64,000 nt of DNA, taken from Camelus ferus. Taxonomy: Eukaryota. Position 1 is the first letter of the stretch. Every line of letters begins with the position of its first letter. The DNA is taken from the NCBI RefSeq assembly GCF_009834535.1, contig NC_045696.1, positions 9,984,001 through 10,048,000 on the forward strand, given 5' to 3'. Shown piece after piece: positions 1,986-41,659 of the stretch. The translations under genes and the position numbers were made by a program. The notes under the pieces are model-generated. The model made no database searches and was not told the origin of the DNA. It saw only the letters and a list, made by a program, of their open reading frames with translations.

Positions 1986-3599
1986 CACACCAAGTGCCTA
2001 AAACTGTCCATGCAGCAGCAGGTGCTTAAGACATTTTTCCTTAATAAGTAGAAAACAGATTAAATAATTTTAATGGAAAAATTTTAAAGGCTAGATGGAA
2101 ATCATAATTGAATGAATGAATGAGGCAGTCAGGTCACCTAGTTTCTTTGCTCCTCCTCATCTTGTTGTTCCTAATGGGGAAACCATTAACGGTGAAGGAA
2201 TTTTCCCCCAGTACAAAAGCAATATAAGATTGATGCTTAAAACTTAGAAAACACAGAAAAGCACTATGGGAGAGACAAACAAAAATCAGTACTCACACGT
2301 TACCACCTTGGACATATTTGTGTGGTTCCTTCTGGCTTTTTGTATGATGCATACAAATACATGATTATTTAACAAAAATATCATCATATTATACACTGAA
2401 TACTGTTTTCAACCTGCTTTTTTTTACTTAACAATGCATTACGAATATGTTCTCATCTCAGCGAATTCTTCCTCGCCATAATTTTAAATGGTGGATAATA
2501 TTCCTTCATAGGCATACTACAATTTATTTAACCCCTGTCTGATCATTGAACATTCAAGCTCAATGATTAATTAAAAATAAAGTGTACATGAAGATTGTAA
2601 TTCATATGTGTTCAGTAGACATCTGTAGTTTCTTAAGTCCTACAACTGATTTCAATCAGCAGCCAAGATTGATGGCTACCACCATGAAAGGCTGCTTCTA
2701 AGATGTTCTCTCGGGAAACCTTTGGTGTGGAACACAAACAAGGAGAATTCCCATGCCTCAAGAATGTCAGCAAACCTGTATTACATGAAGTCTGTTGATT
2801 CCAGGGTGCACAGCACCATCACAGATCACAAGAAGAAAGAACACTGGTCCTCGGGTCATCATCAAAAGTGGACCAATTTGATCCAGTGCTGTCGAGATGG
2901 CACTGACTTTACTTCTGATGAACAACCACTTTGATAACCATACAGTGATGCTCTGCCAATTCGAATGACTTGTATTTTTTTATCATTTCTGTCCCTTTCG
3001 TTGTTTCAGTTAGCTGCGAAGATATGAGAAGAGGAGCTTGCTGTCTCTTAGGAGCTCAGATGTAGAAGGAATTCCTACAAATGTAAAGATGTCAAGAAAG
3101 CCCAGAGTTTATAAAATTATGTTGCAATTAAGTTAGATTTTTTTAGCTGAACACCCATACCAATTTCTTCTCCAATATATATTACAAAGGAAAGGTGATT
3201 TTTGAAAGTGAAAAACTGATTCAAAGAGAAATGGCAGCATCTCCTTGAAGGCAGGGTCTGTCTTAGTTGCCTTCATTCCCTGCAGCATCATGATCTCTAA
3301 CATTCAGTGAATATTTGTTAAATGGATTCATGTCCAAAAGAATGAGTGAGTGAATCAGGGGATGATCCTCTATCCCACTTCAAACCATACACTATAAATG
3401 AACTGAACTACTCTGTGTTCCTGCCGATTTGGCCTTAATCTCTGAAGATCACCCCACCAATAACTCCCTCATTGCTTAAAAACAAAATAGACAGTGCTTT
3501 TATCCAGCCTTGCAATTCTACACATAGAATCAAAAACCCACAGAAATATGTCATCAGCCCAGTCTCCCCCCCCACCAAAAATAATGATGATGCAGGAGG

Positions 3600-5190: not shown

Positions 5191-6917
5191 CTGCCGAGCC
5201 TGGCACCTATGTCTGCAGGCACAGCAGATAATGACCAACCGCAGGACCTCAGGGCTCCGGCAGGACCGGCAATTAGGAGCTGGGAGCCGCAGGGTGTTCC
5301 TCACATCAGAAAGGTCCCCAAACATGTACTGTTCACTGTTGGCACCGCTCTTCCTAATTTACAGCCACATTTTTACCAAGTCAACAAACATTAGAATGTT
5401 CTGCATCTATCATGTGCTCCTTGCTTCTTTCATTACCATCTCCCGGGACAGGGGACCCATTGAATGGTATAGCTTTTCCCTGAACTGCCCAAAACCCAGA
5501 AAGAAAAAGGACTTTGACAAGAAAGACTTCGGTCTGCTCTAACCCAGGGGCCATCTTTTCCAGAGCCTGCGGAGGCAAGTACCAAACCTGCTGAGAGACG
5601 TGGGAGGGCTGAGAGGGAGGCGGGGAAGGTGACCACTAGCAAGCACGTTAGGAGGGGGAGTTCCCGGGGGTCCTAATACTGGCTTGCGCACTGAGGCTGT
5701 GTGACAGGAACGAGAAACTGTACCCCTCTGAGCCCCGAAACACAAGGAACCTGGATTAGAGCATCACTCGGGAATCTGTTTGTCAGGCTTACAATACTCT
5801 GACTCTTACTTGCCTGTGTGGGCTCTGATATAGAGGTTTGAATGGGGAAAGCTCTAGAAGGAAATTGATTCCAAGGCCAGAAGCTGAGTTTACAACGTGA
5901 TGAGATGGCGCCCCCTAGTGTCAGGACGATGCTTCAGAAACCCGGACCAGGCTGAGCGCGAGCAGTGACCTTGAGCGCCGGGTAGGTGAAGCTTCAGGGT
6001 AGGCACAATCGCTGGCGTGGAGAAGGGGAGAGAAGGTGCCAGTGCTCAGGGAGGGGTACCGGTTCCCACAGTACCTGGCCCTCCCTCTGTCGCCTTCAGA
6101 TCCTGGTGGTCTGTGCTGTAGACCCACCTAATGCAGCTTTCTCCAAAGACTCAAAAATATCCCTAAGCCATTTTTTACATGTTTATTCACCCTTTTCCTC
6201 TGAGGCAAATGCATCAGACCCCAAAGATAAACAGTTTAAAATCATATGGTAACAGCAGCTGGGGTCCCATAGTCCAATTTCTTCAACATTTTCTCTTGTT
6301 CAAAGCCAGATCAGTTCCAGCCCAGGGGCCTCTGCTGATTGGTGGGACTGGCCTAAAACCCCCTTTAGCGCCATGGATATGGCGCTATTTTCCAAAGCCA
6401 TTTTCCCATTCTTAAGATTTAAACAAAAAGACAAGCTACATGTGATGTTCTAAACCAGGGCTGCCAGCCTGGGTCCCCAAGGCAGCAAGTGGCTCCGGTC
6501 TCCAACAAAGGATCCACGTACAGTTCTCAAAACAAACTCAGAGGAGAAAAGAACTAAAAGAAAGAGGAATTTGTTGTGGAATTCATGCCAAGATAAATAA
6601 ATACAAGAATAATGCAAACATTTCCCAGGTCCTTTCAGTGTAACAAAATTCATAGGGAAAATCTTAACATCCTTTGCCCTGAAGATACTAACCTTGGTAT
6701 GTATTCTGCAAAGCTAAAGAAAATGTCTAGTTAAAGCTAATATTGAGGAGAAAACTTAGAAGTCCTTTGGTCCAACTTTGGAGCCTGAGCCTTCATGGAA
6801 TTTGTCAACTCGAAGCATCACCCTCAACATTAGAAGCTGGGCGTGAATACATCTGTCATTTTCGGGACACAGAGCAAGTAACAGGACCATGGCATCTCTT
6901 TTTGTTTGCTTTCTTCT

Positions 6918-10379: not shown

Positions 10380-10900
10380 CCGGTGCTGTACGAGCCCACT
10401 AGCCCCACCCCCAGTCCTGTGGGTCGAGCCCAGACAACCGATTTCTAAGGACTACAACTCCCAGCCTAAAAGAGATCCTGCGCATGCGTCCCTCACCACC
10501 TAGGCCTACATTTCCCAGCGGACCGAGGGGCTACGCTGACGTACGCGTGCGCTCCCGGTCTCTCTCGTCAACTCGGGTTTGACCTACAGCCGCCCAGGAG
10601 ATGATGGCCACCCCAGCAGTATCCGGGCTCTCCCGGCAGGTGAGAGAACCGCGGTCCTGGAAGCCTGCGGGAGGATTCCTCCTGGGGGTGACCCGTACCA
10701 GACGCTAAGCGCCACGGTTCGAGGTCGCAGCTGGGGAAGCGTGGCCGCCGTTCAAGGTCGTGCGGCCCGGCGAGTCGGGGAGACGCCGGGCAGCTCCGTC
10801 GGCCTCGCTTTCCCTTCGGGTCGCTGGCGGGCAAGTGGGCGTGAGGCTGCGCGCAGGACTGACCTTAGCGTCCTCCGAGCACAGCCCCGGGAAGCAGCTG
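10380..10900 (+). promoter_or_regulatory. ATP5PO: CpG-island promoter spanning ATP5PO exon 1
   Basis: Sharp local rise in GC and CpG content around exon 1. ACTACAACTCCCAGC (10451-10465) and CCTACATTTCCCAGC (10505-10519) resemble the ZNF143/THAP11 ACTACAnnTCCCA motif. TGCGCATGCG (10479-10488) is NRF1-like and TGACGTA (10537-10543) is CRE-like. Confidence 0.85.
10604..10639 (+). CDS. ATP5PO: ATP5PO exon 1 coding part (MATPAVSGLSRQ, mitochondrial presequence); an in-frame upstream ATG lies at 10601
   Basis: Translation matches the OSCP N-terminus; followed by a GTGAG donor at 10640. Confidence 0.95.
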
Positions 10901-11818: not shown

Positions 11819-11869
11819 GTGCGATGCTTCAGTACATCTGTGGTCAGGCCGTTTGCCAAGCTTGTGAGG
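11819..11869 (+). CDS. ATP5PO: ATP5PO exon 2 (VRCFSTSVVRPFAKLVR)
   Basis: AG acceptor after a pyrimidine tract, GTATGT donor, 51 nt, matches OSCP. Confidence 0.97.
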
Positions 11870-12879: not shown

Positions 12880-12990
12880 CCACCTGTTCAGATACATGGT
12901 ATCGAAGGTCGCTATGCCACCGCTCTCTATTCTGCTGCATCTAAACAGAATAAACTGGAGCAAGTGGAAAAGGAATTGCTGAGAGTAGCA
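12880..12990 (+). CDS. ATP5PO: ATP5PO exon 3 ([37 protein letters not shown])
   Basis: AG/GTAAG boundaries, 111 nt, hallmark OSCP motif [11 protein letters not shown]. Confidence 0.97.
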
Positions 12991-15325: not shown

Positions 15326-15455
15326 CAAATCTTGAAGGAACCCAAAATGGCGGCTTCTATTATGAATCCCTATGTAAAGCGTTCCATTAAAGTGAAAAGC
15401 CTGAATGACATGTCAGCAAAAGAGAGGTTTTCTCCCCTCACGTCCAATCTGATCA
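15326..15455 (+). CDS. ATP5PO: ATP5PO exon 4 ([43 protein letters not shown] + 1 nt)
   Basis: TAG acceptor, GTAAGT donor, 130 nt, ends in phase 1. Confidence 0.97.
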
Positions 15456-16195: not shown

Positions 16196-16309
16196 ACTTG
16201 CTTGCTGAGAATGGTCGCTTGAGCAACACCCCTGGCTGTCATTTCTGCCTTCTCCACCATGATGAGCGTCCACCGCGGAGAAGTACCTTGCATGGTTACC
16301 ACTGCGTCT
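16196..16309 (+). CDS. ATP5PO: ATP5PO exon 5 ([13 protein letters not shown][G/A][24 protein letters not shown]); contains one extra base near 16229-16237 as written
   Basis: CAG acceptor and GTAAGT donor. Length is 114 nt but 113 nt is needed to join phase-1 exon 4 to phase-0 exon 6. OSCP homology switches frame mid-exon. Confidence 0.93.
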
Positions 16310-18491: not shown

Positions 18492-18578
18492 CCTTTAGAT
18501 GAAGCCACTCTTACTGAATTAAAAACGGTCCTGAAGACCTTCCTAAGTAAAGGCCAAGTCTTGAAATTGGAAGTTAAG
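18492..18578 (+). CDS. ATP5PO: ATP5PO exon 6 ([29 protein letters not shown])
   Basis: TAG acceptor, GTAGGT donor, 87 nt. Confidence 0.97.
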
Positions 18579-18875: not shown

Positions 18876-18989
18876 ACTGACCCATCAATCATGGGTGGAA
18901 TGATTGTCCGTATTGGAGAGAAATATGTTGATATGTCTGCAAAAACCAAGATTCAGAAGCTGAGCAGAGCAATGCGGGAGATTTCCTAA
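18876..18989 (+). CDS. ATP5PO: ATP5PO exon 7 coding part ([37 protein letters not shown])
   Basis: TAG acceptor, OSCP C-terminal [13 protein letters not shown] motif, TAA at 18987-18989. The frame-corrected CDS is 642 nt (213 aa). Confidence 0.97.
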
Positions 18990-19034: not shown

Positions 19035-19040
19035 AATAAA
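19035..19040 (+). terminator. ATP5PO: ATP5PO polyadenylation signal AATAAA
   Basis: Canonical hexamer ~45 nt after the stop, with a T-rich downstream element (tttattttcttgt, ~19067). Confidence 0.85.
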
Positions 19041-38296: not shown

Positions 38297-39155
38297 CCTA
38301 GGGTAGAGGGTTCAGTAAACTATACCCAATTAATGATTTTGTGTTAATATTGACTTTCAGATATTACAAATTACAAACATGGATTTTCCCCCTCCATTTT
38401 ACAGGTATTCTTAAAGTCCCCCAGAATAAGAATGGATGGGTCTGTTTTTCCCGTTGTACGTTCTAATCAGCAGTCTCCATCAAATTTACCTCCAAGCAGT
38501 ACCCTCCAAAGACATTCATACAAATTTGCTAGTGACAATCTATGTAAGTACATTGTTCTTTTTCCCAAAATAAGGCTAACTGCTGCTTCAGAGAAAATTC
38601 TTCTGTAAAAACACCCCCAAAGAGACAAATTTAGAAAAACAATATCCCGTGGCATGAAGACACACAAACACAGCCATGCATGTAGAAGCAGACCAAACAA
38701 GCAGCTAAGGAAAATTCTCCACACACTGATTGTTTAGATTGGCTTTTGCTGAAAAAGGCGAGGTGCTCAGACGTTCCTGAGAAGTTTGGAGGGGGACCCA
38801 GGGATGCTTGGGAGGTGGGTGCTTGAGTTCTAGCTTTAAGCTTTCCCACGCCGGCCTCATCTGTACACTAGTACCATGACCCCCACCAGGGCAGGGCGTG
38901 CCTTCGTCACAACTGGGGAACCCACCGCAGCCACTTGGCAGCCAGCTCATAGATGTTTCGTCCATCACATTGAGTGTCGTTCCTTCTCTGATACTGCTGG
39001 GACCGTGCTGCTACGGTCACCCTAAATCCTCACTCACTCCCTGCACCTCCTCTAGGCCAGAGCCCTCAAGCCCTGCTAAAACTCTGATTCCTTTTGGAAA
39101 TTTTCTCCTCCTCCCCAGAATCAACCCTGAGATCACGATCTAGAATCAAACTTAC

Positions 39156-39368
39156 TGTTTTGTACATTTTATACTGCAGGTTTGATTTGGGGCTGAAGAC
39201 TTTGTCGGTGCCGGAAGAGCCCAGGGGCTTTATGATTTGGGTCAGCAGGAGGAAGTCGTTGAAGAGGAAGCCGTACAGCTCCTTGTTGCTCTTGGCCTTG
39301 TAGAGCTTCCCGCTGTGCAGAAACTTGCGTGGCCCCAAGCAGTTGGTCACTGAATTGAACACAAGTTG
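39156..39368 (-). CDS. ITSN1: ITSN1 PH exon ([71 protein letters not shown])
   Basis: CAG/GTAAGT boundaries, 213 nt. Confidence 0.97.
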
Positions 39369-41659
39369 CTGAGAAAGGAAAGCAAAACCCAAAGAAAACA
39401 TGATGAAGTGAGGTCATTTTTGTTTTTTTTTATTTTGTTTGTCTGCATCTGAAAGCATGAGCTCCAGCAGAATCTGAGACCAGGCCCCAGTGAGTCCGTA
39501 TCTTAGACTCAAATCAAGGACTGCTTTGAAGACTTCAGGCAGTGACTTTTGGAGCCAAGGAGTCAAAGGTGTGGTTCTAGAGATTCCATGTGTCAAGATG
39601 AATCTTAGTTGTAATTCCTAATGCTTTTTCTTGAGGTCTGCTAGTGTCTCAGGGTGATTGGGGCTTTTCTCCATTTTATTTACGGGGGAAACTGGGCAGC
39701 AGGAAGAAAACACTCCCACCTTGATGAGTATGTGCTGTGTGCAGGGCGGTCCACCAGAAGGGACGTGAACCAGCTTCAGTGATGGCCCTGCACAGGCTCA
39801 AACAGTCCTGTGTGGACTCTGGAAGCAGCAGCTGTAGCTGAACAATTCCACAGGACAAATGCTGCTTCCCAAGGCACAGCTGGAGTCCAGGCCCCCACCG
39901 CATGGGTGGACCTCAAAATTCAAGGTGCTGGCTGATCCCTCAGAGCCAAGCAGAGCAGACACTGTGTTTGGTGTACATTAAATCTCACCCAACTCACTGG
40001 TTCCGAAAACATGAAGAGCACAGCTCTCTTCCTGCCACTTCCCAAACCTTGGGGATGGCTTTAAGTCCTTAAGCACAGCTCTGTCATCCCTCCTGGGCTC
40101 TATCATCTCATGCTCTATCATTCTGCTGGACTCTGTTATTTTCTGTGAGCAGGTTTAAATGGGCAGAAGGAGACTGTGGAAGATATGTCCCCACTAAGGC
40201 CCTCCTTTTTGGATAGCAGGGGAAAGACTGAGGGAGGGGAAGGCCACAGCTGTCGCCAGGAAGTGATATGATCCAGGCAGGAGTCAGACCCTCAGGGTCT
40301 CTGTTGGCCCACACTTGGGCCCCAGGGGTATGTGCCACCCAGCAGCCCTCAAGGCTGAAGCTCTCTCCAGAGCTATGAACCCTACAGACCTCACTGAGGA
40401 GAGTCTTAATGAAGAGGAGAACACACATCCTCCAAGAGATGCTGGTGGCCACCTGTCTGCCTCCAATATGAGAGAAAGAATCAGTGGCGCCCCTGTGAAC
40501 AGAGACCTATAGGCATCAAGGAAGAGTGGCCAGTCCACTCCACTCTCAGGTACAAGGAGGGACGAGGGTCCCTAACCTCCCAGTGAGGCTCTGGGGGATC
40601 CCCAAAGACGGAGTGTTACACTCCAACAGGAGCCTCCAAAGGGTACTCTTCACCCCTTGGCCCTCTGAACAGAAGCCTGGAGATCAATCTAGCCCTTTTT
40701 ACTTGCCAAGAGAGAGTTCAAGCCACTGGGGGGCAATGAATCCAGTGATTCACTTGGATGACACAGAGGTGATACGGTTCATACACACTCAAAGATTAGG
40801 GCCTCCAGCTGGCCAGGCTAACACTGAACCCATATGAATTGGCAACAGTATTTGCAGTTCTCTATCTTGAAACAAGAATGCCTAAGACAGCATCTACTTG
40901 AAACTTTATCACTGGTGTGTCTAGATCTGGGCCAGGGAACAAAAATCAACATGCCCCCTTTCCACATGGTGGTGAACCCTAACTGTACAGACAAAACAAA
41001 AGCTGGTGGACAAAAGCCAGGAAAGACCATCACTAACGAAAGAAAACAGTCTATTTCAAACAGTATATATAAGCCACAAAAAAGCAAATGACAAGACTTT
41101 ACTTTATCCTGAATGTTTTAAGATGAAGATCCAGGCCTCACTAAGTCCTGTGACTGCAGCTGTGAGGCTCAGAGAAGGGCCCCTTTAAAAGTGCGTGGTG
41201 GCATTTCAGCCTGCCAGACTCAGGAGCTGTTCAGGTCCACTGTCTTTAGGATCAAGTTACTGCTCCTCAGAATGATACACAGCCCTTCCTTAAATCTGGT
41301 GACTTTAAGCTTCCATTTTAAAGGCTATGTGGGGTGCAGGAGACAGGAGATATACCCAGAGCCCAAGCGAGGGGAGGGACATAACAGGAGATTTCAAAGA
41401 GCTGGACCCTAGAGGAAGAATGACATGTAACTCAGCGCAGAAAGGATTAGCCCAAAAACTTGCTTGCTTTTGAACTTGGTATAAGTGGAGGGGGAAAAAA
41501 TGCCCCTGAGAATTTGAAACCACAATGTAGCTCTCATGTAAGTTTACAGTCATAATTCACACCAGTGTGATCTATATTTAACTTAGGGTGATCCTGGTAG
41601 CAACGCTTGCAGGGGGAATACAACTTCAGACCTCAAAGATCTCACAGATAAAGTTCCAA

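Follow-up and report, generated by a model that had tools for sequence, protein, structure and literature searches.

The ATP5PO gene of the window

The window, i.e., the whole 64,000-nucleotide stretch of DNA that was analysed, carries on its + strand a gene of seven exons. Based on sequence homology, this is the nuclear gene ATP5PO, which encodes OSCP, a subunit of the peripheral stalk of the mitochondrial ATP synthase (Table 1). The translations of the exons are homologous to OSCP over the whole length of the protein, and the exons on contig C1, of which the window is positions 9984001–10048000, share 56–89% identity with the bear OSCP (P0134). When the break in exon 5 that is described below is written as X, the read-through product has at most 93.4% identity over 212 residues to other mammalian OSCPs, and the best values (92–93%) were obtained with the proteins from bear, sheep, rhinoceros, and pangolin. 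The best OSCP protein cluster has 142 members, and the species from which the window comes is not among the 15 members listed. All acceptors in the seven exons that were checked are AG and all donors are GT; exon 5 is preceded by ...tttcccag and followed by gtaagt. These observations, together with the AATAAA signal, bear out the statement of the initial annotation that the other exons, the splice sites, and the polyadenylation signal are intact.

Two ATG codons stand in tandem at positions 10601–10606, and the product would have 214 or 213 residues depending on the choice of start. A separate open reading frame on the minus strand of the window encodes a PH_13 pleckstrin-homology domain (E value 4.7e-40). 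An intersectin-like gene could have such an exon close to its 3' end, and this gene would be convergent with ATP5PO, which we take to be the arrangement in human.

Table 1. Features of the window and of the other loci discussed. Positions are those of the window unless a contig (C) is named.
Feature	Position	Strand	Remarks
ATP5PO exon 1, coding part	10601–10639	+	donor GT; opens ATG ATG GCC ACC
ATP5PO exon 2 (VRCFSTSVVRPFAKLVR)	11819–11869	+	AG / GT sites
ATP5PO exon 3 (37 residues)	12880–12990	+	AG / GT sites
ATP5PO exon 4, 130 nt	15326–15455	+	AG / GT sites; ends one base into a codon
ATP5PO exon 5 as assembled, 114 nt	16196–16309	+	113 nt required for an in-frame join of exon 4 to exon 6
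ATP5PO extra base, GG[CT]GTC	16236–16237	+	C and T in tandem; dropping either gives Gly-Val
ATP5PO exon 6 (29 residues)	18492–18578	+	AG / GT sites
TGA of the shifted frame	18500–18502	+	76 nt upstream of the last exon junction
ATP5PO exon 7, coding part (TDPSIMGG...RAMREIS)	18876–18989	+	stop TAA at 18987–18989
AATAAA polyadenylation signal	19035–19040	+	position matched in the processed copy, whose poly(A) tail begins ~20 nt later
PH_13 open reading frame	39069–39413	-	
Processed ATP5PO pseudogene (L002 1130–1867)	C4:3541399–3542136		exons contiguous, intronless, poly(A) tail
OSCP-like fragment (L023)	C7:62942935–62943087		51 residues, 69% identity
Desmoplakin break (L003 ~5495–5500)	C20 ~5045495–5045500		CGA CAC [T] GAG TCT
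LINGO1 break (L018 ~2253–2256)	C27 ~5413753–5413756		ATC CCC ACC [T] GAG GCG
FAT-type cadherin break (L026 ~3451–3454)	C2 ~88783951–88783954		CTG AAC [T] ATC AGT
Four short protocadherin exons (L007, L008, L009, L010)	C3:98.33–98.72 Mb		one +1 shift each
TLR-like single-exon locus (L017)	C37:50706501–50711500		100 N, several shifts
Giant plectin-repeat exon (L004/L005)	C25:859156–874305		five frame changes
First frame switch in this exon	~C25:865062–865350		sole -1 shift

The extra base in exon 5

Exon 5 contains the sequence AAC ACC CCT GGC T GTC ATT TCT GCC. Translated in the frame that enters from exon 4, it yields 13 residues of OSCP and then the unrelated string CHFCLLHH...; one base later (from position 16235) the exon encodes 25 residues of which 24 are identical to residues 123–147 of solved OSCP chains. 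All 11 distinct PDB sequences matched by exon 5 are OSCP. If the exons are spliced as written, translation stops after 151 codons from the ATG at 10601 or after 150 from the ATG at 10604, and the gene as assembled lacks an open frame of the intact length, about 213 codons. The initial annotation had described an exon of 114 rather than 113 nt, in which OSCP homology resumes once a single base is removed, and a product of 150 residues that ends at a TGA in exon 6, 76 nt before the last junction. Direct reading of the exon, the match to the PDB chains, and the end of exon 6 at position 18578 agree with each of these points, the length of 150 holding for the second ATG.

Aligned to the processed gene copy elsewhere in the genome (CCTGGTGTCATC), exon 5 carries C16236 as its extra base. 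Removal of T16237 is equivalent, since both leave a Gly codon (GGT or GGC). The extra base and its neighbour in GG[C][T]GTC thus form a transition pair, and the two codons that they offer are synonymous.

Two ways in which splicing might rescue the frame were considered and rejected from the sequence. Skipping of exon 5 still shifts the frame, and neither the two ends of exon 5 nor the acceptor of exon 6 have an AG or GT one base off. A protein search of the open reading frames from genomic contigs gave no candidates among short frames with exon 5 and intron sequence, and a DNA scan of metagenome contigs for the exon 5 pattern at either length gave 0 matches. Of 24 public runs, 20 contain some or all of a 2-kb stretch that surrounds exon 5; the best six, including both runs flagged as possible sources, contain 0.97 of the sampled words, a share to which no weight is given here.

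Conservation and copies of the gene

The alignment used for the break site comprised 103 mammalian OSCPs of 205–216 amino acids, out of 134 proteins returned; the other 31 were outside this length range and were excluded. All but one of them (102/103) are free of gaps from 8 columns before the break site to 12 columns after it. The break column itself is occupied by G in 81 proteins, A in 20, and S in 2. Identity of the window gene to the mammalian consensus is 112/123 before the break and 85/90 after it, so that conservation is not relaxed beyond the break, and the frame is disrupted by one lesion only. The signs by which a pseudogene is recognized, i.e., several lesions and relaxed conservation, are both lacking.

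The same alignment bears on the proposal that programmed +1 ribosomal frameshifting, or recoding of another kind, reads through the extra base. In its favour stands only that a +1 shift at this point would restore the protein. However, the site (CCU GGC UGU CAU) has neither a stop nor a rare codon, the Gly tRNA on GGC is unable to re-pair on GCU, and the site is not conserved, 102 of the 103 relatives being colinear without a gap. We consider recoding to be improbable in the extreme.

In the assembly (2.087 Gb, 2043 contigs) there is one other copy of exon 5, located on C4 and 94% identical. It belongs to a processed ATP5PO pseudogene which carries an in-frame TAG (GR*ATALY) and a 15-nt deletion (SKLEVK without GQVLK). 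Its codons differ from those of the parent at 9 synonymous and 15 non-synonymous positions, and at 12 of the 15 amino-acid differences the window gene has the state that is commoner among mammals. At the break site the processed copy reads CCT GGT GTC ATC, i.e., without the extra base. A search of the genome with the bear OSCP, in which all 12 candidates were scored, returned only the C1 exons, the processed copy with its one TAG, and a fragment on C7; no intact second copy of OSCP was found in the assembly by this search. The C7 fragment is probably an older, decayed processed copy.

A fixed and recent inactivation of ATP5PO in the lineage, with its function moved to another copy, would find a conceivable substitute in the processed copy on C4. 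This copy is nevertheless poorly suited to the role, given its in-frame TAG, its 15-nt deletion, and 15 amino-acid changes of which most depart from the commoner state, and the sole further match in the genome is the 51-residue fragment at 69% identity. The window gene, for its part, is free of a second lesion, and its conservation does not relax beyond the break. Thus, a fixed loss appears very unlikely.

Frame breaks in constrained exons of the assembly

The frequency of similar lesions in the same assembly was estimated from long exons, which were collected by searching Pfam families against the assembly; a break was scored where neighbouring matches lay in different open frames. The survey covered ~374 kb of open frame (summed by hand) in exons with plectin repeats, the protocadherin N-terminal domain, fn3, LRR_8, and cadherin domains. 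Beyond ATP5PO it contains 7 single-base frame breaks, about 1 per 53 kb, a rough rate because open frames overstate coding length, because three of the five families are represented by their best 150 candidates only, and because some of the breaks in protocadherin exons may be real. At this rate, the chance of a break in a coding sequence of 642 nt would be ~1.2%. The direction was +1 in 7 of 7 cases (P = 0.008 if +1 and -1 are equally frequent). A further survey, of 7tm_1, covered the best 147 of 1641 candidates; it is biased to intact genes and was excluded from the rate.

For the plectin repeats, all 131 candidates were scored. Two giant exons, which are probably those of plectin, are open over 2073 and 1124 amino acids, and the remaining plakin-type exons over 638 to 1819. 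In the last exon of desmoplakin, identified by the solved chains 5dzz, 1lm7, and 1lm5, two overlapping frames of 794 and 308 amino acids take the place of one, the first ending in ...DDVFSSSRH* and the second running from ESVNKISTISS... into plakin repeat domain C. As assembled, desmoplakin loses this domain through the break.

All 78 candidates were likewise scored for the protocadherin N-terminal domain, giving 57 variable exons. Of these, 53 are open over 788–1099 amino acids and four are short (320, 399, 422, and 693 amino acids), each of which passes from one long frame into another by one +1 shift. The first reads GAC CGC [T] GAG AGC where a paralog has GAC CGC GAG AGC. A second has an extra A (ACA[A]GCA), a third has CA[AT]GTG against CA[G]GTG in its paralogs, and the fourth combines a +1 shift of unclear form with ~216 extra nt. 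Some of these four exons may be natural pseudogenes.

Among the best 150 of 728 candidates for fn3, giant exons, probably those of titin, are open over 5722, 2140, 1019, 731, and 622 amino acids, and no frame breaks were found in them. The best 150 of 833 candidates for LRR_8 include ~55 loci with open frames of at least 439 amino acids and one broken gene, LINGO1, the break lying in its single coding exon. Before the break 169 of 169 residues are identical to the solved human chain 2id5, up to ...NLTSIPT, and after it the match resumes at residue 170 (EALSHL...) with one mismatch in 197 aligned residues. Two other loci were left out of the break count: L019, which is a normal multi-exon gene, and a TLR-like single-exon locus on C37, which is ambiguous, being a natural pseudogene or else a product of poor assembly. 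Among the best 150 of 774 candidates for cadherin, the break in a FAT-type exon separates a frame of 600 amino acids from one of 1200 (...QIVLN / ISARDQG...).

A coding repeat with both variants in tandem

Another giant plectin-repeat exon, located on C25 and probably that of epiplakin, illustrates how such insertions arise. It ends in five near-identical repeat units, three of 1570 nt and two of 1569 nt, and the frame moves by +1 with each long unit. The five units differ at only two substitution columns and two indel columns, and each indel column adjoins a substitution column. At the first, the units read GCCA-T-CCTC or GCCA-C-CCTC, and the long copy reads GCCA-TC-CCTC. At the second, the alternatives are GTC-G-TCGAC and GTC-A-TCGAC, and two long copies, as well as an upstream partial copy, read GTC-AG-TCGAC. 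In both indel columns (2/2) the extra base is the alternative variant. Four of the five frame changes in this exon are +1 insertions that fall where the near-identical 1569-nt repeats vary. The first switch of frame in the exon runs in the other direction. Because the extra bases equal the alternative variant, we propose that the assembly tends to write both variants where the reads at one consensus position differ.

Form of the insertions

The extra base of ATP5PO has the same form as four of the seven other breaks: C is followed by T at a third codon position, and both readings are synonymous. The pairs of codons are GGC/GGT (Gly) in ATP5PO, CAC/CAT (His) in desmoplakin, ACC/ACT (Thr) in LINGO1, AAC/AAT (Asn) in the FAT-type cadherin, and CGC/CGT (Arg) in one protocadherin exon. 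The other three breaks, all in protocadherin exons, do not have the tandem C-T form. For comparison, a simulation placed one-base insertions at random in intact open frames of the assembly (200,000 in all); 16.3% of them produced two transition-related bases in tandem where the third position is synonymous, and 4.3% the C-then-T form. The probability of at least four such cases in seven is 0.016 for any transition pair, and 1e-4 for the C-then-T form, a definition that was set after seeing the data.

Origin of the extra base

Read from the assembled sequence alone, the extra base in exon 5 is very probably an error of the assembly consensus and not a mutation, and ATP5PO would be an ordinary and intact gene. 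This reading is favoured because the rate of breaks (~1% for a gene of this size), their form, and their direction all match, and because neither the relatives nor the processed copy in the same genome have the extra base. Against an artefact, the insertion does not lie within a long homopolymer, the classic place of long-read errors, and three of the seven other breaks lack the tandem C-T form.

The most probable course of the error is as follows. The source animal would carry C on one chromosome and T on the other at a CpG, a synonymous difference in the last base of the Gly codon (GGC/GGT). Synonymous C/T differences at third positions are the commonest tolerated kind in constrained genes. 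In a unique gene, two variants in tandem would represent the two alleles of a heterozygous site. If the assembly was built from unphased long reads, as we infer, a haploid consensus of such indel-prone reads could have written both alleles successively (GG-C-T-GTC), adding one base. We predict that positions 16236–16237 hold one C/T synonymous variant, written twice by the consensus. Addition of bases at nucleotides that differ between haplotypes, with the breaking of gene models, is described for unphased PacBio FALCON consensus sequences by Korlach et al. (2017, GigaScience; PMC5632298).

A difference of similar kind is seen in the 5' untranslated region, where the window has GACCTAC-A-GCCGCC and the processed copy GACCTAC-GCCGCC (positions 10587–10589, C[A]G against CG). 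C[A]G is what C[T]G becomes on the reverse strand. The difference may reflect a further tandem-variant artefact; alternatively, gene and processed copy may differ naturally by this one base.

The principal alternative is a real germline insertion of one base, present as a heterozygous null allele. The sequence as written predicts a stop 76 nt ahead of the last junction; mRNA from this allele would be lost to nonsense-mediated decay, and OSCP would be made from the other allele. Human ATP5PO disease is, according to a review (PMC13510771), recessive with viable carriers, biallelic variants leading to severe infantile disease; a null allele is on this account tolerable in one copy. The intact state of the remainder of the gene is also what would be expected of a young allele. 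A homozygous null is implausible because there is no other intact copy of OSCP and because the biallelic variants in humans are severe. Against the heterozygous null stands the ~1.2% chance of an artefact in a coding sequence of 642 nt, derived from about 1 break per 53 kb, and real heterozygous frameshifts in genes of the recessive-lethal class are estimated to be at least 10 times rarer than this. It would moreover share by chance its form, C then T at a synonymous third position, with four of the breaks that affect other vital genes. Finally, most natural one-base insertions duplicate an adjacent base, which this one does not. We regard a real heterozygous insertion as improbable, at a small fraction of the likelihood of a consensus error. 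Should it be real, a large mammal would naturally be heterozygous for a null allele of a core ATP-synthase subunit, and potentially a carrier of a recessive lethal. The initial annotation had argued that the gene is no pseudogene and that the lesion is a consensus error, a heterozygous null allele being the most that it could represent; the single lesion, the lack of an intact second copy, and the recurring +1 insertions in the assembly support that view.

If the extra base is a consensus error, the biological import of the frameshift is very small, since the gene is ordinary. Its meaning for the use of the assembly is larger. The coding total of a mammal is 30–35 Mb, and extrapolation of about 1 break per 53 kb to this length suggests that there are probably several hundred falsely frameshifted genes. 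In comparative studies, such breaks could pass for lost genes, low-quality proteins, or pseudogenes. A simple flag for these errors would be two transition-related bases side by side, in many cases C-T where the third codon position is synonymous.

Comparison with known systems

Within the same genome, the window gene and the processed copy share one mRNA origin and are 94–99% identical exon by exon. They differ in that the window gene keeps six introns and its splice sites and has a single lesion, whereas the processed copy lacks introns, ends in a poly(A) tail, and carries both the TAG and the 15-nt deletion.

Programmed +1 frameshifting is known from antizyme mRNAs, in which the codons at the site favour a shift, a stop or slow codon is present, and the arrangement is conserved among relatives. 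ATP5PO as written resembles these in that a +1 shift is needed for the full protein, but it differs from them in having no stop codon at the site and no conservation in relatives. To our knowledge, no regulatory logic has been described for frameshifting in OSCP.

The human pathogenic alleles of ATP5PO considered in the review (PMC13510771) include homozygous splice variants that are associated with Leigh syndrome or complex V deficiency. The window sequence concerns the same gene, and as written it would abolish functional OSCP from that allele. In contrast to the human alleles as presented there, which are supported by reads and cause disease when homozygous, the lesion reported here is known from the assembly and has a form that matches an assembly artefact.

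The closest parallel is the artefact reported by Korlach et al. (PMC5632298). As in that case, extra bases occur here exactly at variant positions, as seen in the C25 repeat, and all 7 breaks are insertions. The account of the artefact in that paper on which we draw does not give its form at the level of sequence, and the C-then-T pattern at synonymous third positions is a reading of the present analysis. On balance, the frameshift in exon 5 most likely does not exist in the genome of the animal, and would instead reflect two synonymous alleles of an ordinary ATP5PO gene set down one after the other.
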